A stretch of 64,000 nucleotides of DNA from Candidatus Nomurabacteria bacterium (lineage in GTDB: Bacteria > Patescibacteriota > Saccharimonadia > Saccharimonadales > CAIOMD01), in contig JACKGO010000003.1 of NCBI GenBank assembly GCA_020631975.1, positions 106,973 to 170,972 on the forward strand. The letters run 5' to 3'. The position numbers and the translations under genes are program-made. Shown one piece after another: positions 5,998 to 52,360 of this stretch (position 1 is its first letter; each line of letters starts with the position of its first letter). The notes beneath the pieces were generated by a model. The model searched no databases, had not been told where the DNA came from, and saw only the letters and a list, made by a program, of their open reading frames with translations.

Positions 5998-8376
5998 TTA
6001 TCTACCAAGTGATTCTTCGGTTTTCTTAATATCAATAGTTGTTTTAACGACAGTGTCTGGAGCTAAGGAAATACTATCTATGCCTGTTTCTACCAAAAAG
6101 CGTGCAAACTCAGGGTAATCAGAAGGTGCTTGACCACATAAACCAATTTTTGTGTTGGTCTCTTTTGCCACCGCCACAACGCTACGAATTAAGGCTTTTA
6201 CTGCTTCGTTGTTTTCGCTATAGACGTGAGCGACTTCGTGGTTATCCCTGTCTACACCCAAAGTCAGTTGCGTAAGATCATTAGAACCAATTGAAAATCC
6301 ATCGAATAGTTTCGCAAATTCACGGGCCAATAGTACGTTAGATGGTATTTCAACCATAACGTATACTTCAAAACCATTTTCACCACGTTTGAGACCACAA
6401 TACTCCATAATCTCTAACACCTTGCGCGCCTCTTCAAGGTCACGGCAAAATGGAATCATCGCTTTAACGTTTGTAATACCCATTTCATCACGAACTTTTT
6501 TTAGCGCCTGACACTCTAGCTCAAAGGCAGCTCGGTATTGCTCGCTATAGTAACGACTCGCGCCACGCCATCCAATCATCGGATTGTTTTCTTGCGGCTC
6601 AAACTGTGTACCACCAATTAAGTTAGCGTATTCATTTGTCTTGAAGTCACTAAAACGAATAATAACGTCATTGGGGTAAAATGCGGCACCTATTGTAGCG
6701 ATACCTTCGGCTAATTTATCTATAAAGTATTGTGCTTTATCTTCGTAACCGAGCGTTAACTGATTTATCTGAGCACGTACCGCTTTATCTTTAACTTCGT
6801 GGAAACGTAACAACGCTAAAGGGTGAATTTTTATATGTGAATCAATAATAAATTCTTCTCGCGCTAAGCCAACTCCATCATTAGGAATTTGCGAATATGC
6901 AAACGCATGGTCAGGTGAACCAATGTTCATCATAATCTTGGTTTTTGTCCGTGGTAAGTCTTTAACATCGGTTTTATCTACCTCATAGTGCAAAATTCCT
7001 TCGTACACAGCGCCTTCGTCACTACCGCCAGCACAGCTTACTGTTACATCTTGACCATCATGTATGAGTTCTGAGGCGTTGCCTGTGCCAACAACACATG
7101 GAATGCCTAGTTCCCTCGATACAATGGCTGCATGGCAGGTACGCCCACCTTTATCGGTAACAATAGCACTCGCTATCTTCATAATAGGCACCCAGTCTGG
7201 GTCGGTCATTTCTGTAAGCAGAACATCACCCTCTTTAAAATCGTCAATGTCTTTGACGCTCATAATTTTACTTACTTTACCAGTACCTATTTTGCTACCA
7301 ACACTCGTACCAGTTGCCAGCACGTGACCTTCTTGAGCTAAACGATATTCTTCAATAATGTTCGTGTCGCGGCGAGACTGTACCGTTTCTGCCCTGGCCT
7401 GCACAATGTACAATTGACCGTCGTCTTCATCTAGAGCCCATTCAATGTCCATTGGGTGGCCGTAATGCTGTTCAATAAGCATTCCCCAGTGCGCCAGCGT
7501 CTTTACTTGATCATCGTTTATAGAAAAACGGTTTTGATCACTTACTTTTACAGGCAGGTTTTTGGTACGATTAGCACCAATTGGTACCATCTTCATTTTT
7601 TTTGTGCCAAGATGTCGTTTTAGGATAGCCATAGTTGGCTTAAATACAATAAACTCATCGGGGTTAACGTGCCCTTGTACAATGTTTTCTCCTAAGCCGT
7701 AAATTGAACTCACAACTACAGTATTTTTAAAGCCAGATTCAGTATCGATGGTAAAAAGTACTCCAGCACATTCACTGCGCACTGCTACCATTTGTTGAAT
7801 ACCAACCGAAAGCGCTACTTTCATGTGGTCAAATCCGTTAGATACACGGTATACAATCGCCCTATCGGTGAATAATGATGCAATACATTCTTTTACCGCG
7901 GTAACAACATCTTCTTCGCCTTTGATGTTTAAAAAGGTGGCTTGTTGGCCGGCAAAAGAAGCGTTCGGCAAATCTTCTGCTGTAGCAGATGAACGAATCG
8001 CTACCACCATATCACCATCATGGCCACATTTCTGGCTCAATTCGCGGTAACCTTGTTTAATTTCATCTTGAAAATCCTGAGGTAATTGGGCATTAATAAT
8101 CATTTCACGGATAATAGTACCCCGATGTGCTAAATCATGAACATTACTAACGTCTAGGCCTTGTAAGGTATCTGTAATACCCTGGTTTAAGCCAGCGCTT
8201 TCAAGAAAATATCGGTAAGCATCTGCAGTCGTTGCTACCCCATTCGGCAAACTCACTCCCTGCGGTCTTAAGTGTCGATACATTTCGCCAAGAGAAGCGT
8301 TTTTGCCACCTACTTGCGGTATGTCATCAATTGATAGTTCCTCAAAAAATTTTAAATATTTGTACATCTGTTCCAC
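5998..8376 (-). CDS. ppsA: Phosphoenolpyruvate synthase (pyruvate, water dikinase)
   Basis: 792 aa. N-terminal ATP-grasp region (GGKNASLGEM), phosphohistidine swivel (GGRTCHAAIVSRELGIP) and C-terminal PEP-utilising TIM barrel. Confidence 0.9.
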   Translation of the reverse strand: MEQMYKYLKFFEELSIDDIPQVGGKNASLGEMYRHLRPQGVSLPNGVATTADAYRYFLESAGLNQGITDTLQGLDVSNVHDLAHRGTIIREMIINAQLPQDFQDEIKQGYRELSQKCGHDGDMVVAIRSSATAEDLPNASFAGQQATFLNIKGEEDVVTAVKECIASLFTDRAIVYRVSNGFDHMKVALSVGIQQMVAVRSECAGVLFTIDTESGFKNTVVVSSIYGLGENIVQGHVNPDEFIVFKPTMAILKRHLGTKKMKMVPIGANRTKNLPVKVSDQNRFSINDDQVKTLAHWGMLIEQHYGHPMDIEWALDEDDGQLYIVQARAETVQSRRDTNIIEEYRLAQEGHVLATGTSVGSKIGTGKVSKIMSVKDIDDFKEGDVLLTEMTDPDWVPIMKIASAIVTDKGGRTCHAAIVSRELGIPCVVGTGNASELIHDGQDVTVSCAGGSDEGAVYEGILHYEVDKTDVKDLPRTKTKIMMNIGSPDHAFAYSQIPNDGVGLAREEFIIDSHIKIHPLALLRFHEVKDKAVRAQINQLTLGYEDKAQYFIDKLAEGIATIGAAFYPNDVIIRFSDFKTNEYANLIGGTQFEPQENNPMIGWRGASRYYSEQYRAAFELECQALKKVRDEMGITNVKAMIPFCRDLEEARKVLEIMEYCGLKRGENGFEVYVMVEIPSNVLLAREFAKLFDGFSIGSNDLTQLTLGVDRDNHEVAHVYSENNEAVKALIRSVVAVAKETNTKIGLCGQAPSDYPEFARFLVETGIDSISLAPDTVVKTTIDIKKTEESLGR

Positions 8377-12557: not shown

Positions 12558-12841
12558 ACAGCTATAGCCTACGCTTTATTTTTGGTTAGTTGTTAGTTTA
12601 CAGTGGTGATGTGTTGTCACACCATCGTATGCATATAAGTATATGCTTATGGTTTAGCACAGTCAATATGAAATTGCTCTTTTGTATAATATGTATTTTC
12701 GCATTGCAAATAGCATTTTAATAATTACTAAAATGTTTAGTAATTTTGTAGACAACATACCCCTGTTATGGTACTATTGACTAGCTTATTTATGCGCATA
12801 CTGGCTGGTTCATCCAGATTTTTATGTCACACATATAGCGC

Positions 12842-12858
12842 GGTCCCGTCGTCTAACG
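12842..12858 (+). repeat. Perfect copy of tRNA-Glu positions 1-17 (acceptor 5' strand to D-loop)
   Basis: GGTCCCGTCGTCTAACG is identical to 13037-13053. Confidence 0.9.
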
Positions 12859-13036
12859 TGAGAGTAGCCAGTAGGCTGCTCGCAAGAAAACCTTCCGATG
12901 AAAACTTGTTTTCAGTAGCGAAGTTTTGAGGCCACAGGATGTGGCAGGACATCAGTTTGCAAAGATGTTGTGACGGGCTCGCTAAAAGTGAGTCGATTCA
13001 GAATCGAACCCAGCTGCAGTATAATTAAGCTTACAT
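12859..13036 (+). other. Hairpin-rich non-coding segment (family member A5) between the tRNA-Glu 5' fragment and the intact tRNA-Glu; candidate structured RNA or miniature integrated element
   Basis: Hairpins: GTAGCC-AGTA-GGCTGC, TGAAAAC-TT-GTTTTCA (12899-12914), GCCAC-AGGAT-GTGGC, and GGCTCGC-TAAAA-GTGAGTC. About 33/41 nt match 28686-28726. GGGCTCGC..AGTGAGTCGA is shared with 51118-51140. It contains AGGACATCAG (12946-12955), which equals tRNA-Glu positions 21-30. It ends with TATAAT at 13020-13025. Confidence 0.6.
13020..13025 (+). promoter_or_regulatory. Candidate -10 box (TATAAT) for tRNA-Glu
   Basis: A consensus TATAAT lies 11 nt upstream of tRNA position 1. The same arrangement is seen upstream of tRNA-Lys, tRNA-Arg(TCG) and tRNA-His. 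Confidence 0.4.
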
Positions 13037-13111
13037 GGTCCCGTCGTCTAACGGTTAGGACATCAGGTTTTCATCCTGGAAACAGGGGTTCGATTCCCCT
13101 CGGGATCACCA
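13037..13111 (+). tRNA. tRNA-Glu (anticodon TTC), CCA encoded
   Basis: Manual cloverleaf: acceptor GGTCCCG/CGGGATC, D-stem GTCT/GGAC, anticodon stem TCAGG/CCTGG, loop TTTTCAT, T-arm AGGGG-TTCGATT-CCCCT. 75 nt. Confidence 0.93.
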
Positions 13112-13180
13112 ATAAAAATACCTCAGCTAGTCTGGGTGTTTTTATTGGTTGGTTGTCAACGGCAACCGGACACCTGTAAA

Positions 13181-13234
13181 GGGTTCAGATAATCCCCCTA
13201 AGCAAAGCGACAAACGGGCGGATTATACCCTAGT
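13181..13234 (+). other. Conserved junction module preceding the duplicated tRNA-Glu 3' end
   Basis: GGGTTCAGATAAT is followed by a long hairpin (ATAATCCCCC ... GGGCGGATTAT). The same 13-mer plus an equivalent hairpin (ATAATTT ... AAATTAT) sits before the duplicated tRNA-Arg 3' end at 50753-50790. Confidence 0.45.
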
Positions 13235-13254
13235 ATTCCCCTCGGGATCACCAA
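13235..13254 (+). repeat. Perfect copy of the tRNA-Glu 3' end (T-loop A58 to CCA plus 1 nt); att-type direct repeat
   Basis: ATTCCCCTCGGGATCACCAA is identical to 13093-13112. Confidence 0.9.
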
Positions 13255-13258
13255 AAGC

Positions 13259-13284
13259 GACTCACAGTATGTGGGTCTTTTTTT
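13259..13284 (+). terminator. Rho-independent terminator
   Basis: GACTCAC-AGTAT-GTGGGTC stem-loop followed by T7. Confidence 0.7.
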
Positions 13285-13378
13285 AGGAACGTTAGATTTC
13301 TGATCGCAAACTTAGTAAAACATACTGCCCCTAAAGCCACCCAGGCCAGGCCATAAGCGTCTGTTATAATAAATACCG

Positions 13379-28541: not shown

Positions 28542-28664
28542 ATATCCTCCTCTTTTAATATTAGTATTATACGCCTAGCGCCATGTAAATAGACAGTTTA
28601 CATTTTGTAATTGATATGCAATAATTACCCCTGTTGTTTTTTAACACTCAACATATCTACAACA

Positions 28665-28805
28665 GGTCTGTAGCTCAGCTGGTTACCTTGCGATAAAAAC
28701 TTGTTTTCAATCGAGAAGTTCAGGGGTCGCAGAATGTACCTTGCCTCTTCCAAGCTCCGCTCGCTATAAAGATTGAATAGCACTTTTAGATATAATAGAT
28801 ACTAT
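28665..28805 (+). other. tRNA-like 5' fragment plus hairpin-rich segment (family member B5) directly upstream of tRNA-Lys
   Basis: At 28665-28685, GGTCTGTAGCTCAGCTGGTTA; its 16 nt at 28670-28685 equal tRNA-Lys 28812-28827. At 28686-28726, CCTTGCGATAAAAACTTGTTTTCAATCGAGAAGTTCAGGGG is about 80% identical to 12891-12931. CTTGCCTCTTCCAAG resembles the tRNA-Lys anticodon arm. GCTCGCTATAAAGATTGAAT resembles 12977-13000. TATAAT at 28791-28796. Confidence 0.6.
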
Positions 28806-40741: not shown

Positions 40742-40818
40742 GCACCCGTAGCTCAGCGGATTAGAGTACTTGGCTTCGAACCAAGGGGTCGCAGGTTCGA
40801 ATCCTGCCGGGTGTACCA
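40742..40818 (+). tRNA. tRNA-Arg (anticodon TCG), CCA encoded
   Basis: Acceptor GCACCCG/CGGGTGT (G1-U72), anticodon stem CTTGG/CCAAG, loop CTTCGAA, T-arm GCAGG-TTCGAAT-CCTGC. 77 nt. TATAAT lies upstream. Confidence 0.9.
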
Positions 40819-41015
40819 CGTCTATATTTAAGGGCTTCTCTATAGAAGTCTTTTTTTTGTAACTTAGTACGTCAATTTCGACAATAGATAGAAAATACGG
40901 CTCGTATATAACTCAGCGTTTTGCTTCAAATAATTTCATGGTGATAATTTTGTACATAGCCGTTTTTCATGTTTTTATAGTTGTAATATTTTTGATTTTG
41001 TGTTATAGTAATTAT

Positions 41016-47469: not shown

Positions 47470-48990
47470 ATGAGTAGTAATAATGTCAAAATAGGTCATT
47501 TAATCACTAAAATTAGACAAGAGCGTGGCTTAACACAGGCTGAGTTTGCGCGGAGGCTCGGTACGAGCCAATCAGCAGTAAACCGCATAGAACAAGGGAA
47601 GCAAAATCTTAGCCTAGAAACCATTGCCCGAATTAGTACTGCACTTGGTAAAGATATCGTTACCCTTAACCACCCTAAGTCACTTAGTTTTGAAATAAAC
47701 GGTGGCAAAGAGTTACATGGCGAAATTACCATGAAATCGTCTAAGAATGCCACAGTAGCGATATTAGCTGCATCGTTACTTAATAAAGGTACGACATATA
47801 TAGAAAATGCACCACGAATTGAAGAAGTTTTTCGGTTGCTAGAAGTGCTCGAAAGTATTGGTGTTCACGTAAAGTGGATTAAAGGCACTGATTTAGAAAT
47901 TAAACCACCTGCAAAACTTCGTTTAGACAAAATAGACGCCGAAGCTGCTAAAAAAACGCGCAGTATCATTATGTTTATTGGTGCAATAATGCATTACCAT
48001 AATGAATTTGAAATACCGTTTGCTGGTGGATGCCACCTTGGTAAACGCACTATCGCAGCACACCAGTTTGCTCTTGAACAGTTTGGTGTATTTATAGAAA
48101 CACAAAGTGGTAAATATGTTATTAAAGTTGGCAAAAAACAGCCAGAAAACGTCACTATGTACGAAATGGGAGACACTGCGACAGAAAACGCCCTCCTTGC
48201 GGCTGCGATGACTAAAGGCAAAACAACGATACGGTTTGCGGCATCTAACTACATGGTGCAAGATCTATGTTTATTCTTGCAAAAATTAGGGGTAAAAATA
48301 GATGGTATTGGCACTGCTACGCTCACGGTTCACGGTGTTGATAAAATTCAAAAAAGGGTAAAATATCACCCCGCCGAAGACCCACTAGAAGCTATGCTTT
48401 TTATTTCTGTGGCTGCTATAACAAATTCTAAAATTACCATTAAGCGATGTTCGATTGATTTTCTTGAACTAGAACTGCTTAAGCTAGAAAAAATGGGGTT
48501 ACGATTTGATTATTCGGATATTTATTATTCCTATAATGGCCATACCAGGTTGGTAGATATTACTACACATCACCATGATGGTTTAGTAGCACTAGAAGAT
48601 AAAATACATCCGCTGCCGTACCCTGGAATAAATATAGATAATTTACCATTCTTTGTACCAATTGCGACGCTCGCAGATGGCGAAACACTTATACACGACT
48701 GGGTTTTTGAAGACCGCGCGCTGTACTTTACTGAGCTTAATAAATTAGGTGCAAAAGTGCGCTTGTTAGACCCCCACCGCGTAATGATAGATGGGCCTAC
48801 TCATTTTAAGGCTGCAGAGGTTATTTGCCCACCCGCCCTACGGCCTGCAACTATTATTTTAGCTGCCATGCTAGGTGCACCAGGTAAGTCAATTTTGCGT
48901 AATGTATACTCTATTAACCGAGGCTACGAATCACTCGCTGAACGCCTACGTTCTATTGGTGCAGATATAGAAACACTGCACGAGTTATAG
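47470..48990 (+). CDS. murA: XRE-HTH domain fused to UDP-N-acetylglucosamine 1-carboxyvinyltransferase (MurA)
   Basis: Residues 1-65 are IGHLITKIRQERGLTQAEFARRLGTSQSAVNRIEQGKQN (XRE HTH). The remainder is a MurA/EPSP-synthase fold with SKNATVAILAASLL and GGCHLGKRT (catalytic Cys region). Confidence 0.85.
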   Translation: MSSNNVKIGHLITKIRQERGLTQAEFARRLGTSQSAVNRIEQGKQNLSLETIARISTALGKDIVTLNHPKSLSFEINGGKELHGEITMKSSKNATVAILAASLLNKGTTYIENAPRIEEVFRLLEVLESIGVHVKWIKGTDLEIKPPAKLRLDKIDAEAAKKTRSIIMFIGAIMHYHNEFEIPFAGGCHLGKRTIAAHQFALEQFGVFIETQSGKYVIKVGKKQPENVTMYEMGDTATENALLAAAMTKGKTTIRFAASNYMVQDLCLFLQKLGVKIDGIGTATLTVHGVDKIQKRVKYHPAEDPLEAMLFISVAAITNSKITIKRCSIDFLELELLKLEKMGLRFDYSDIYYSYNGHTRLVDITTHHHDGLVALEDKIHPLPYPGINIDNLPFFVPIATLADGETLIHDWVFEDRALYFTELNKLGAKVRLLDPHRVMIDGPTHFKAAEVICPPALRPATIILAAMLGAPGKSILRNVYSINRGYESLAERLRSIGADIETLHEL

Positions 48991-49201: not shown

Positions 49202-49277
49202 GCCCCGGTAGCTCAGTGGATAGAGCAAGTGGGTTCTAACCATTAGGTCGGGGGTTCGAATCCCTCCCGGGGTGCCA
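49202..49277 (+). tRNA. tRNA-Arg (anticodon TCT), CCA encoded
   Basis: Acceptor GCCCCGG/CCGGGGT, anticodon stem AGTGG/CCATT, loop GTTCTAA, T-arm GGGGG-TTCGAAT-CCCTC. 76 nt. Confidence 0.9.
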
Positions 49278-49282
49278 AGCAT

Positions 49283-49307
49283 AAGCGTTATCGAAAGATA
49301 GCGTTTT
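49283..49307. terminator. Stem-loop terminator shared by tRNA-Arg and the convergent NUDIX gene
   Basis: AAGCGTTATC-GAAA-GATAGCGTTT followed by a T-run. A near-copy lies at 51165-51191. Confidence 0.65.
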
Positions 49308-49312
49308 ATATA

Positions 49313-49780
49313 TTATTTTACAATGCCTTTATCAAGAGCCACTTGATAAGATTTCCAAAACTGAGAATGTAGTGGGCTGGGTAGCGTTTTACTAGTGAAC
49401 CAACCGATTTCTTCAATCTTGTCAGGTTCACCAATCTTGACTTTGTCTGGGTCAACTTGTACCGCATGCATTATAGCAACCCAGTGTGTTTTTATTGATT
49501 TATTTACTCTAAATGCATCGTAAACTGTCAGAAAGTCAATCGACATCGGTATTACACAAAGCTCTTCGAAAATTTCTCTGCTTACAGCTTCTGAGATTGA
49601 TTCACCAAATTCTATAGCGCCCCCACCAACATCCCATTTACCATTTTCATCTCGGGCTCGTTGGCCTCGTTTTTGCAACAACACTCTACCTTGACCGTCG
49701 TGCACTACAAAACTAGCCGAAATGCCGATATAGTCAACACCTCTTTTTATATCGTTTATATCATCTATTGAACAGTTCAT
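49313..49780 (-). CDS. NUDIX hydrolase
   Basis: Nudix box GGGAIEFGESISEAVSREIFEELC. Confidence 0.88.
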   Translation of the reverse strand: MNCSIDDINDIKRGVDYIGISASFVVHDGQGRVLLQKRGQRARDENGKWDVGGGAIEFGESISEAVSREIFEELCVIPMSIDFLTVYDAFRVNKSIKTHWVAIMHAVQVDPDKVKIGEPDKIEEIGWFTSKTLPSPLHSQFWKSYQVALDKGIVK

Positions 49781-49861
49781 TTGTAATATTATAACTAATA
49801 TATAGCCATACTTTGCATAAAGGTTTGTATAATTTAATTATTTTAATGATATTATTACTTA

Positions 49862-50658
49862 ATGAAAAGATTCGAAGCATTACTATCTGATGCTGATGGT
49901 ACATTAATCGACAGTGTTCCTCTTATTAAGCATGGGCAATACGAAACAGCTATTACTTTCTTAAAAGCACACGGCTTAGCTGATAGCGATTTACCGGATT
50001 TTCCAACATACGAAACGGCTCTAAATCAAACCGTTGGGGGTAGCGCTAGAGATACGCTGGAACGGACAGTCAGAATGCTTTATTCGGACAGAGAGCATCA
50101 TATAAATGGAGCTGATTTTGATGTTTTACATAATATGCTAAACCCTGTGCAAGATAGGATTGCACCGGGTATATAAGAGCATATCCTGGCCTACAGTTAC
50201 TTCTAAAGAATCTCGGTACACACAGTTTAAAACTTGCAATTTTTACAAGCGGAACACCGCATCATGTAGTAAGAAATATGGGTATAGCTCTGCCAGAACT
50301 TGGGCTTACCAAACTATTTAAAGATGAAACTATATCTGACCGTGAAAAACTAGTACATTTTGAAAAAGAAGTAGAAAAATATTATAGAATTCCTATTTTT
50401 ACTGTTGTAACTATAGAAGATACAAAAGAACCTAAACCAGATCCAGAAGGCTTGCAGATAGCTATGAAAAGATTGAGCGTAGAGCCAAATGATTGTGCCA
50501 TGCTTGGTGATCATAAGGCCGATATGCAAGCAGGATTTAATGCAACTGTGCCAATTAGGATTGGTATAACTCATGGCTTTGACGATAAAGAAACACTGGA
50601 AGAAGCTAAAGCTACTGAGATAGTTACTAACCTTAGCGACATAAAGTTAGAGTCCTAA
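49862..50658 (+). pseudogene. HAD-superfamily hydrolase interrupted by a frameshift
   Basis: ORF 49862-50176 carries motif I (DADGTLIDS). The frame of ORF 50278-50658 extends upstream as AYPGLQLLLKNLGTHSLKLAIFTSGT (motif II) and carries GDHKADMQAG (motif IV). The frames switch near 50165-50185. Confidence 0.7.
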
Positions 50659-50752
50659 CTTTGTATACGACAGTGTGCCATATTAAATCATTCACCTTCA
50701 TGGTGGATTTTTTAATATGACGTCGCTGAAAGCGAATTGAACCCCCCAAGGA

Positions 50753-50843
50753 GGGTTCAGATAATTTGAGTAGTTTACGAAAATTATATGATGAAACCGA
50801 ATTTGCCATTCCATAAATAAAGGCAAATCTGGCTTGAAGCTAT
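50753..50843 (+). other. Junction module preceding the duplicated tRNA-Arg 3' end
   Basis: GGGTTCAGATAAT (50753-50765) plus the hairpin ATAATTT...AAATTAT, then the hairpin TTTGCC...GGCAAA. It parallels 13181-13234. Confidence 0.45.
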
Positions 50844-50863
50844 AATCCCTCCCGGGGTGCCAA
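50844..50863 (+). repeat. Perfect copy of the tRNA-Arg(TCT) 3' end (T-loop A58 to CCA plus 1 nt); att-type direct repeat
   Basis: AATCCCTCCCGGGGTGCCAA is identical to 49259-49278. Confidence 0.9.
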
Positions 50864-50898
50864 TTTATGAAACTACCTTTTATGGTAGTTTTTTAAAT

Positions 50899-51164
50899 TG
50901 ATTCCGAGATAATTCGTACACTCGACCGTTGGTCGGGTGAAAACTGCCTGTGGCAGTTTGCAAGGCCGGAAACTGATTTAAAGCTATGCTTTAAGTAAGT
51001 TGAGGCGGGGTCGCAACCGATTGGCAGCTTGCTGTCAGTAGGATTGTGCCGAGAATTGCCGGTGGCAATTCGCAAGGAAACAAACACTTGAAAACTATGT
51101 TTTCAAAGCTGTTTTTTCGGGCTCGCCGGAAGTGAGTCGAAATTCCTGCCGGGTTACAAAGCAT
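50899..51164 (+). other. Hairpin-rich non-coding segment (family member C5) ending in a decayed tRNA-Arg 3' end
   Basis: Perfect 7-8 bp hairpins with 3-nt loops at 50941-50959, 50978-50994, 51053-51071 and 51088-51106. The unit hairpin-YGCAAGG-AAAC occurs twice. TTGAAAAC-TAT-GTTTTCAA and GGGCTCGCCGGAAGTGAGTCGA are shared with 12899-12998. GTCGAAATTCCTGCCGGGTTACA aligns to GTTCGAATCCCTCCCGGGGTGCCA. Confidence 0.6.
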
Positions 51165-51191
51165 AAGCGTTATCGTAAGATAACGTTTTTT
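51165..51191 (+). terminator. Terminator stem-loop, paralogue of 49283-49307
   Basis: AAGCGTTATC-GTAA-GATAACGTTT followed by T-run. One G-to-A change converts a wobble pair into a Watson-Crick pair. Confidence 0.6.
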
Positions 51192-51210
51192 ATTTGGTAT
51201 AATTAATTTC

Positions 51211-51972
51211 ATGGCTCAAAAACAACCTACTGAAGAAGCTGAATCATACACCAAGATGACGGCAGATGTTTATGATGCTATTTATAGCAGAAAAAACTAT
51301 AAAGCAGAGGCTGAAGCATTAAAAGACCTTATCGATAAATATAAAAAATCTGCTGGTAATGAATTGCTTGATGTGGCTTGCGGAACTGGGCTGCACTTGC
51401 CATATTTAGTATCTGACTTTGACATAACGGGAGTAGATTTATCTAGTGAGCAACTTAAGGCGGCAAAGAATAGATTACCAGAATTACAATTTATCCAAGG
51501 CGATATGCGTGAATTTGAACTTGGTAGACAATATGACGTAGTTACTTGTCTTTTTAGTTCTATTGGGTACGTACACCCATACGAAGAGCTCGTTACAGCT
51601 ATTGGTAATATGAGTAACCACGTAAAACCTGGGGGAGTATTAATCATTGAGCCATGGCTACAACCCGGCGTGTTTGATCCAAACAAACCACCACACACAG
51701 AAACTGGCGAGTTACCAGAAAAAGGGGTTAAGGTTACCAGGACCGGCACAAATAGTCTAGAAGGTAACATTTCTATCCTTAATTTGTATAATGTGGTGGA
51801 AAGTCCTAGTGGTACATATGAATTTACAGAAGAACATAGATTAGCAATGTACAGTGTTGACGAGCTTGCACAAGCATTCCAAGAAGCAGGCCTAAATATG
51901 ACTTGGCTAGACCAAGGTTTATCATCTAGGGGTCTTTGTGTAGGTGTAAAAGCAATAGATGATATTGCCTAA
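51211..51972 (+). CDS. Class I SAM-dependent methyltransferase
   Basis: LLDVACGTGLH (motif I). TGGTATAAT at 51195-51203 lies only 7 nt from the ATG. Confidence 0.85.
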   Translation: MAQKQPTEEAESYTKMTADVYDAIYSRKNYKAEAEALKDLIDKYKKSAGNELLDVACGTGLHLPYLVSDFDITGVDLSSEQLKAAKNRLPELQFIQGDMREFELGRQYDVVTCLFSSIGYVHPYEELVTAIGNMSNHVKPGGVLIIEPWLQPGVFDPNKPPHTETGELPEKGVKVTRTGTNSLEGNISILNLYNVVESPSGTYEFTEEHRLAMYSVDELAQAFQEAGLNMTWLDQGLSSRGLCVGVKAIDDIA

Positions 51973-52131: not shown

Positions 52132-52209
52132 GGCGGATGTAGCTCAGTTGGTTAGAGCGCCTGTTTGTGGCACAGGAGGCCGTGGGTTCAATTCCCATCA
52201 TTCGCCCCA
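52132..52209 (+). tRNA. tRNA-His (anticodon GTG) with encoded G-1, CCA encoded
   Basis: G-1 plus acceptor GCGGATG/CATTCGC, discriminator C73, anticodon stem CCTGT/ACAGG, loop TTGTGGC, T-arm GTGGG-TTCAATT-CCCAT. Confidence 0.9.
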
Positions 52210-52344
52210 AGACATGAACCCCGCTATCACGAGGTTTTATTATTCGGCTCCTGCTGAGATTCCCATATAGCTTCACGCCAAGAAAAAAGATATTAACCAA
52301 GGAGTTTTCTTGGGTTCTATATATATTCTCACTAATGTTCGAAT

Positions 52345-52360
52345 ATCATTCGCCCCAAGA
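52345..52360 (+). repeat. Copy of the tRNA-His 3' end plus 3 downstream nt
   Basis: ATCATTCGCCCCAAGA is identical to 52197-52212. It is preceded by a T-loop-like GTTCGAAT and followed by its own terminator (ATCCCG-TTTTGA-CGGGAT-TTTT). Confidence 0.8.

Follow-up and report, generated by a model that had tools for sequence, protein, structure and literature searches.

Results

Repeated tRNA 3' ends downstream of tRNA-Arg

The DNA analyzed here, a 64,000-nt stretch of contig JACKGO010000003.1 (assembly GCA_020631975.1, Candidatus Nomurabacteria bacterium) that we refer to as the 64-kb window, contains an intact tRNA-Arg(TCT) gene whose 3' end recurs in perfect form beyond a NUDIX hydrolase gene and a HAD-family hydrolase gene. 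An earlier note on this sequence had read the 1.57-kb interval between the repeats as a decayed or cis-mobilizable islet with the two hydrolase genes as its cargo. Our analyses show that the strain-variable DNA is a 182-nt non-coding unit, here called M-Arg or M, whose right end is the distal repeat and which is followed by a sister unit, S-Arg or S. The features of the locus are as follows.

49202-49277, plus strand: intact tRNA-Arg(TCT) (ARAGORN; Rfam, 64 bits)
49283-49306, no strand assigned: terminator T1, common to tRNA-Arg and the convergent NUDIX gene (terminator scan)
49313-49780, minus strand: resident NUDIX hydrolase gene (PF00293, E=3e-17)
49862-50658, plus strand: HAD-family hydrolase gene, allele A (HAD_2/Hydrolase Pfam matches on the C-terminal open reading frame, ORF)
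50675-50680, plus strand: GTGCCA, left junction of M, equal to the last 6 nt of tRNA-Arg and the remnant before terminator T2 in M-less strains
50681-50862, plus strand: unit M-Arg, 182 nt, non-coding, strain-variable (insertion/deletion in relatives)
50844-50863, plus strand: distal 20-mer (repeat copy 2), right end of M (pattern search)
50864-51160, plus strand: unit S-Arg, sister of M (repeat families D3 and D6; motif search; metagenome family match)
51165-51188, plus strand: terminator T1', a diverged T1 duplicate just upstream of the methyltransferase promoter

A pattern search of the window found AATCCCTCCCGGGGTGCCAA exactly twice, at 49259-49278 and 50844-50863, with no further site at up to three mismatches, and two matches were obtained in 0/100 shuffles. 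The first copy corresponds to nt 58-76 of tRNA-Arg(TCT) plus one base, and the perfect, direct 20-nt repeats that had been reported at both ends of the interval are therefore confirmed at 49259 and 50844. The earlier note does not mention a third copy, in which the tRNA-Arg 3' end and its terminator are degraded, at 51141-51193 (85% over 53 nt). The last 19 nt of tRNA-Glu(TTC) (13037-13111) plus an A (13093-13112) are likewise repeated at 13235-13254, and, as had been reported, the tRNA-Glu and tRNA-Arg repeats begin at the same structural position, A58. The 3' end of tRNA-His, again not previously noticed, is repeated as well (52197-52212 and 52345-52360). Four of the nine tRNA genes in the window have partial self-copies built on one plan, and the other five are without units.

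The strain-variable DNA is a 182-nt non-coding unit

The organism is a Saccharibacterium (Candidatus Saccharimonadales). Approximately 30 contigs from near-identical Saccharibacteria strains were collected by exact-protein look-ups, including GCA_020428475.1 and GCA_035404785.1 (contigs and loci are designated by L numbers), and the region from MurA to the methyltransferase gene was aligned across them. Three configurations were observed.

Configuration A: tRNA-Arg, T1, NUDIX, HAD, M, T2-S, degraded repeat, T1', methyltransferase (window, L001-L007, L246)
Configuration B: tRNA-Arg, M, T2-S (short), degraded repeat, T1, NUDIX, HAD, no M, T2-S, degraded repeat, T1' (L011, L012/L241)
Configuration C: as A without M (L015)

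L008-L010 also bear the distal M and stop short of the methyltransferase gene. Configuration B comes from three samples, and L014 shows the proximal M and then ends; in L242-L244, the distal M is absent and the contigs stop before the tRNA-Arg side, so they may be of configuration B or C. M is a discrete 182-nt insertion/deletion unit found at two sites, with junctions sharing GTGCCA. The empty distal site reads CGACAGT-GTGCCA-ATTTATG and the filled site CGACAGT-GTGCCA-(182 nt, ending ...AATCCCTCCCGGG-GTGCCA)-ATTTATG; GTGCCA, the extreme 3' end, is the only identity common to both distal-site junctions. In agreement with this, the spacing from HAD to the methyltransferase gene is 536 nt with M and 354 nt without M, and 425 nt in L245.

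The earlier note had itself pointed to relatives carrying the interval without the repeats as evidence against an islet, and seven contigs (L015, L011, L012/L241, and L242-L244) lack the distal 20-mer yet keep NUDIX and HAD, so that just 182 nt differ and the 1.57-kb interval is not the variable unit. In L011, L012, and L014, M lies directly after tRNA-Arg; in configuration B it stands upstream of NUDIX, which places NUDIX and HAD outside M. The two genes, whose identification as a NUDIX hydrolase and a frameshifted HAD hydrolase between the repeats agrees with the PF00293 match and the split ORFs, occur in every relative, and NUDIX is kept in configurations A, B, and C (96.6-99.8% identity between haplotypes). 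They are resident genes between the tRNA and a displaced copy of the unit array, not cargo. The HAD gene of the window is broken into two ORFs (49862-50176 and 50278-50658) because one A is absent from CCGG(A)GT near 50166, as seen by alignment with the relatives; this break is private to the window, the gene being intact (265 aa) in all relatives (e.g. L001-L010, L246), and is a 1-nt deletion or a sequencing error rather than island decay.

HAD allele A (49862-50658) and the allele of configurations B and C (L011, 12762-13559) share 74.0% DNA identity, compared with 97-100% for the other flanks, which suggests recombination import from a divergent lineage. The distal M of the window and the tRNA-proximal M of L011 are identical at 181/182 positions, and M must therefore be far younger than its surroundings or move independently of them. 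Base composition gives no clear signal (GC 0.355-0.39 within the interval against 0.38-0.44 in the flanks). GTGCCAA flanks NUDIX-HAD on both sides (49272-49278 and 50675-50681), which is compatible with an old insertion, mediated by microhomology, between tRNA-Arg and the M/S array.

A second variable unit, M-His (148 nt, non-coding), is present in the window, L011, and L012 and cleanly absent from L001, L003, L005, L006, L007, and L246. The odd tRNA-His spacing of L243, considered as a further variant, is a scaffold gap of Ns. The presence and absence of M-Arg and M-His bear out the proposal that repeated tRNA 3' ends mark strain-variable, non-autonomous DNA.

The units combine a terminator with sense and antisense pieces of a tRNA

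M has a folding z of -6.0 and comprises the following parts.

50690-50708: terminator (terminator scan)
50723-50733: small hairpin
50738-50759: hairpin of an inverted plus a sense T-arm
50753-50765: 13-mer GGGTTCAGATAAT
about 50803-50830: TTTGCC...GGCAAA hairpin
50844-50862: copy of tRNA-Arg nt 58-76

The sister unit S comprises the following.

50869-50895: terminator T2
50920-50937: degenerate hairpin of antisense T-arm and sense T-stem
about 50938-51049: degenerate core
51050-51139, plus strand: canonical structured core (helices P2, P3, and P4), occupying the T54-T55 position in the partial tRNA copy
51141-51160: degraded tRNA-Arg 3' end

The common layout is, in order, an intrinsic terminator, an antisense T-arm region, a short loop, the 5' strand of the sense T-stem, a filler, and the sense sequence from T-loop to CCA. 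In S, the filler is a structured core of ~90 nt standing where T54-T55 would be, and M itself is coreless; a short S without the degenerate core is found in L011 and L245. In M-type units, the terminator-like hairpin follows straight after CCA and the tRNA 3'-end copy comes last. The termini of M are TATTAAATCATTCACC... on the left and ...GCTATAATCCCTCCCGGGGTGCCA on the right, and no inverted repeat is formed by its ends (TATTAAATC... and ...GGGGTGCCA). The length of the flanking identity differs between the two sites of M (6 nt and 19-20 nt), i.e. there is no fixed-length target duplication. T1 and T1' are 85-90% identical (repeat family D3), whereas the resemblance of the M terminator to T2 (~70%) and of the M-His terminator to the original tRNA-His terminator (~75%) was estimated by eye. 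M and S form a small tandem array built from the 3' part of tRNA-Arg, and comparison of their sequences presents the units as diverged duplicates of a tRNA 3' part with its terminator. Further units in the window are the following.

13112-13253, plus strand: unit M-Glu, with a layout like that of M-Arg (terminator; 13-mer at 13181-13193; copy of tRNA-Glu nt 58-76)
52213-52360, plus strand: unit M-His, bounded by ATCATTCGCCCCAAGA at 52197-52212 and 52345-52360
12842-13036, plus strand: 5'-type unit upstream of intact tRNA-Glu (tRNA-Glu nt 1-17, core-type sequence, promoter; repeat family D4)
28664-28805, plus strand: 5'-type unit upstream of intact tRNA-Lys (tRNA-Lys nt 1-21, truncated core with P3 and P4; repeat families D4 and D14)

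Only the final A (13254) of the M-Glu repeat falls outside that unit, which is fixed in all relatives examined. The two 5'-type units mirror the 3' units, end with a promoter, and are also fixed in all relatives, the tRNA-Lys one being identical in locus L182; their core-type sequence lies at about 12859-12996 and 28685-28740. Motifs of S recur in these two 5'-type units and also in L047, a locus of another species, where the unit follows tRNA-His. The unit family is thus not tied to one tRNA.

The 13-mer occurs in the window only at 13181 and 50753 (0.08 expected), but GGGTTC, which makes up six of the 13 bases, belongs to the T-stem/T-loop sequence conserved in tRNA-Arg and tRNA-Glu, leaving AGATAAT alone as independent similarity. 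M-Arg reads GCGAATTGAACCCCCC-AAGGA-GGGTTC and M-Glu reads AACCGGACACCTGT-AAA-GGGTTC, in both cases an antisense T-arm, a loop, and a sense T-stem/T-loop. The proposed kinship with the tRNA-Glu locus, based on the 13-mer and its hairpin, is upheld by a similar layout, and it extends to tRNA-His; the further proposal that this module is an integrase arm is not upheld, since it reads as an inverted plus sense copy of the T-arm. In M-Arg, AGATAAT completes a sigma-70-like, promoter-like match (TTGAAC-17-GATAAT), whereas M-Glu and M-His are without a good -35 box.

A structured core adjoins tRNA genes in metagenomes

A metagenome scan with a 21-base pattern from the center of S returned at least 120 loci (L121-L240); the same pattern had no match in viral contigs. 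The core is also present in L047 (9560-9740). Among the matches listed, the core motif adjoins a tRNA gene on the same strand in nearly all loci with enough flanking sequence, and more than 15 isoacceptor types are represented. The 3'-type units (45 non-redundant) follow the order intact tRNA, terminator, antisense copy of the last ~33 nt, a 3-5-nt loop, sense nt ~44-53, core, and C56 to CCA. Their antisense arm opens with TGG right after the U-tract and is significantly cognate to the adjoining tRNA in 30/39 units (mean score 21.0 against 12.7 for non-cognate tRNAs), and in most of the 45 units the identity block begins 21 nt ahead of the tRNA end; it frequently extends 9 nt or more into the terminator. 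Tandem unit arrays are found in L047 and L216.

In 5'-type units, an upstream pseudo-copy begins at tRNA +1, is interrupted by the core in the T-loop, the anticodon loop (37/38), the D-loop, or at 25/26 (twice in one L148 copy), continues for a short distance after the core, and is followed by the intact tRNA, in front of which stand an antisense T-arm and then a -10-like box. The core also occurs in the loops of non-tRNA hairpins, with an intact copy of the hairpin adjoining (L136, L233, L147, L151, L169, and L224; for example, GAGCCTCCAGAGGG|core|TGGGCACC...).

A consensus structure derived from 110 and from 50 sequences has three helices (P2, P3, and P4), with compensatory changes in 19/32 predicted pairs; invariance at the top of P3 and in the 5' half of P4 is solely a product of the search pattern. 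G-U cells (193) far outnumber A-C cells (25), and one G-U pair is kept in 106/110 sequences. By this excess, the strand that folds is the tRNA-sense one, whether as RNA or as single-stranded DNA. Core and units gave no Rfam match: the gathering-threshold scan of the whole window returned tRNA only, and permissive scans of 50600-51250 and 12780-13320 (E<=10 and E<=1) returned only tRNA and chance matches. The literature searched held no description of the core. The ~90-nt core, an RNA-like element with a conserved structure that is widespread beside tRNA genes and apparently undescribed, may be something new.

Two more specific identities for parts of these units were discarded. A hammerhead-like CUGAUGA in P3 belongs to a stretch that covaries as a helix (CUCUUGA in other copies). 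The TGG-initial antisense arm invites comparison with a retroviral primer-binding site, but its acceptor part is the least conserved, and group II introns, hence their reverse transcriptases, are reported absent from Patescibacteria (PMC13011429). In four loci after tRNA-Ser, tRNA-Asp, tRNA-Phe, and tRNA-Gly (L140, L163, L186, and L191, respectively), the unit frame of terminator, antisense arm, and tRNA 3' copy encloses a filler that differs from the core, being structured and GA-rich in appearance; there may be more than one core family.

Searches for integrases, phages, and recombinases

NUDIX and HAD are the sole genes between the repeats and no recombinase family appears in the flanking Pfam lists, so that the reported lack of an integrase holds. 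No integrase, transposase, or reverse transcriptase is named in the Pfam lists of syntenic genes in relatives, which cover ~0.8-60 kb of the window. A phage or plasmid origin of M was also considered and set aside: blastn of M against phage records gave no match, the junction formed by joining the ends of M in the manner of an attP site (...GGGGTGCCATATTAAATC...) is absent from viral contigs, and the core pattern was equally missing there. The A58 start of the repeats had been taken to indicate the T-loop class of tRNA-targeting integrases, an inference that fails: the distal junctions share only GTGCCA at the extreme 3' end, and an identity block starting from a fixed C56 in more than 15 different tRNAs reflects the position of the core rather than the specificity of one integrase.

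Among the neighboring ORFs checked in the metagenome loci are serine recombinases and one transposase of the Mutator family. In several loci, tRNA-Met, tRNA-Pro(TGG), and tRNA-Gly(GCC) are followed directly on the 3' side by a convergent gene for a large serine recombinase with Resolvase and Recombinase domains (L192, 1690-3291; L184, 5113-6717; L144, 772-2430; also L162, L153, and L191). This arrangement suggests that tRNA flanks are used in these bacteria by elements encoding serine integrases. The window holds no serine recombinase.

Discussion

The variable DNA at this locus is made of small non-coding repeats and partial tRNA duplications. The earlier view of a variable, non-autonomous repeat family stands, whereas the extent and cargo assigned to it do not, and probably neither does the mechanism. 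How such units arise is finely balanced in our judgment, and the reading that we prefer, fold-back copying followed by gain, loss, and movement through recombination and exchange, has about as much for it as against it. Judging from the anatomy of the units, copying would turn back at the tRNA terminator hairpin, and a second turn at the T-arm would produce the succession sense, antisense, sense, with the core or another filler occupying the T-loop of the spare copy. Because the antisense arm begins right after the terminator U-tract, one long palindrome runs from the tRNA 3' half through the terminator into the antisense arm. Units would then be gained, lost, or moved by recombination between tRNA-derived direct repeats, down to 6 bp, and may also spread by homologous exchange between strains, with no need for a local integrase. 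Inverted triplications and fold-back palindromes, formed by template switching at hairpins, show the same sense, antisense, sense order with turns at terminator and T-arm; in contrast to these, the arrangement described here is repeated across many loci and species, in every case at a tRNA gene, and in most cases it contains a conserved structured core.

Several observations count against fold-back copying. The mechanism is deduced solely from unit anatomy, and simple duplication leaves unexplained the presence of a conserved core in the loops of partial copies, both of many different tRNAs and of non-tRNA hairpins. M is seen at two sites, both directly upstream of ATTTATGAAACTACC (T2), a pattern that a recombinase specific for GTGCCA plus T2 would yield, and wherever M is distal it accompanies the divergent HAD allele A; its polymorphism there may reflect no more than an imported haplotype. 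The antisense T-arm signal is weak in the M-type units (p=0.02 for M-Arg, not significant for M-Glu and M-His), and M would belong to the S family mainly by its layout, its tandem position with S, and the homology of its terminator.

We tentatively entertain, as the lesser possibility, that the core represents a new class of non-coding, structure-seeking element of Patescibacteria, which settles in the loops of tRNAs and other hairpins while copying part of its target, M-type units being coreless products. Such an element would leave an intact gene, an interrupted partial copy, and an antisense arm and would act as tRNA-sense RNA or single-stranded DNA. A related proposal, somewhat more doubtful, is an active mobile element, MITE-like (miniature inverted-repeat transposable element) or RNA-based, inserted into the loops of folded tRNAs or tRNA genes by an enzyme acting in trans, with part of the target being duplicated by the insertion itself; candidates would be a HUH transposase that acts on single strands, a reverse transcriptase, or a reaction of the ribozyme type. 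It would account for a strongly structured core with a conserved G-U pair at 120 or more loci, for its range of positions (T-loop, anticodon loop at 37/38, D-loop, 25/26, and non-tRNA hairpin loops) always next to an intact target, for partial copies that begin exactly at tRNA +1, and for the near-identity of M at two sites. However, apart from occasional recombinases and transposases, no associated protein was found among the neighboring ORFs, terminal inverted repeats and fixed-length target duplications are both absent, M has no core, and group II introns, together with their reverse transcriptases, are reported to be missing from Patescibacteria (PMC13011429).

Comparison with known elements is instructive here. 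MITEs, repetitive extragenic palindromes and bacterial interspersed mosaic elements (REP/BIME), enterobacterial repetitive intergenic consensus (ERIC) sequences, and Rickettsia palindromic elements are also ~100-200 nt long, non-coding, rich in hairpins, multicopy, strain-variable, and located between genes or in structured RNAs. Unlike these, our units have no terminal inverted repeats or fixed target duplication of their own, each copy carries sequence cognate to the neighboring tRNA, and the core shows RNA-type covariation with a kept G-U pair. With regard to IS200/IS605-type single-strand elements and their non-autonomous derivatives, subterminal hairpins (P2 and P4) are present in the core, whose neighboring ORFs, where checked, yielded the recombinases and the transposase mentioned above. 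Introns of tRNAs, both the group I introns found in the anticodon loops of Patescibacteria tRNAs (PMC13011429) and archaeal introns at non-canonical positions, likewise place a structured insert in tRNA loops, sometimes more than one per copy, as in L148. The interrupted copies described here differ in being truncated pseudo-copies beside an intact gene, so splicing is unnecessary, and the core, at only ~90 nt, matches neither the group I model nor any other model of Rfam 15.

Considerably less probable is that M, M-Glu, and M-His are minimal attL-attR (attachment site) remnants of tRNA-targeting integrative elements, or cis-mobilizable mini-elements derived from these, moved by an integrase encoded elsewhere in the genome. 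Direct repeats of tRNA 3' ends do flank the units, each unit brings a new terminator as integrated elements do, the presence/absence alleles are precise, and the 6-bp GTGCCA of the distal junction has the size of a tyrosine-recombinase overlap. Partial tRNA copies left by integration are common (PMC9897764), and large serine recombinase genes are found directly 3' of tRNA genes in related metagenome loci. In tyrosine-integrase islands and prophages, including cis-mobilizable elements (CIMEs), an intact tRNA and a partial copy of its 3' end also stand in direct orientation, the DNA that follows the tRNA comes from the insert, and strains differ by the presence of the insert. In contrast to these, the inserts described here are 148-182 nt long and gene-free with no integrase nearby, the DNA that varies is not the interval bounded by the perfect repeats, and an antisense T-arm copy is added. 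The integrase account also meets the absence of an integrase from the 64 kb and from the flanks of any relative, and no larger element with the ends of M was found, viral and phage searches being empty. The unit terminators are diverged duplicates of host terminators, and, to our knowledge, serine recombinases make no direct repeats of 16-20 nt. Taken together, many tRNA targets (more than 15 types among the matches listed for the S family), each with cognate sense and antisense pieces, and the lack of an integrase argue against integrase att sites.

Least probable as an explanation in itself, although compatible with the others, is that the units are functional cassettes, selected as terminator-plus-promoter insulators or small RNA genes with a tRNA-like 3' tail and varying through ordinary allelic exchange: every unit opens with a terminator, M-Arg has its promoter-like match, 5'-type units place an antisense T-arm and a -10-like box before the intact tRNA, and the core is conserved across species, yet the units are dispensable, as seen from strains without M-Arg or M-His and from the five unit-free tRNA genes of the window, and M-Glu and M-His fall short of a good -35 box.

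Because the repeat belongs to a tiny variable unit, rules that find islands from tRNA 3'-end repeats misfire in these genomes, and the island call at this locus is corrected in favor of NUDIX and HAD as ordinary residents. Such an abundance of non-coding structure beside essential genes is unexpected in genomes of ~1 Mb. If the core is mobile or catalytic, it would offer a new route for non-coding DNA or RNA to spread with the target undamaged; if it is functional, it would hint at an unrecognized step of tRNA gene expression in the Candidate Phyla Radiation.

Neighboring genes and other observations

An empty site for NUDIX and HAD was also sought in other Saccharibacteria, and the comparison does not define an integrase island. 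In L044, tRNA-Gly, tRNA-Arg(TCT), and tRNA-His are contiguous after MurA (7552-7813), and in other species (loci compared include L045, L049, L052, and L065) 1.4-3.9 kb of unrelated genes split tRNA-Arg from tRNA-His; these orthologous MurA loci have neither an integrase nor tRNA-end repeats between tRNA-Arg(TCT) and tRNA-His. The gap between the two tRNAs is variable over a deep timescale, and because its contents differ among species, the NUDIX-HAD-methyltransferase block, which has no integrase or bounding repeats of its own, is a lineage-specific filling.

The MurA/EPSP-synthase-fold enzyme of the window (47470-48990) bears an N-terminal XRE-type helix-turn-helix (HTH) domain, and the full-length HTH-MurA fusion has relatives with 55-62% identity in other Saccharibacteria and many Streptomyces genomes. 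One strain carries a transposase gene (HTH plus rve_3; L027, 1559-2488) upstream of adenylate kinase, where other strains carry pyruvate phosphate dikinase and glycolysis genes. Finally, ARAGORN calls an antisense tRNA-Arg(TCG) at 40761-40831 (minus strand) that overlaps the real tRNA-Arg(TCG) at 40742-40818; Rfam backs only the plus-strand gene, and the antisense call probably reflects its palindromic TTCGAA anticodon arm.

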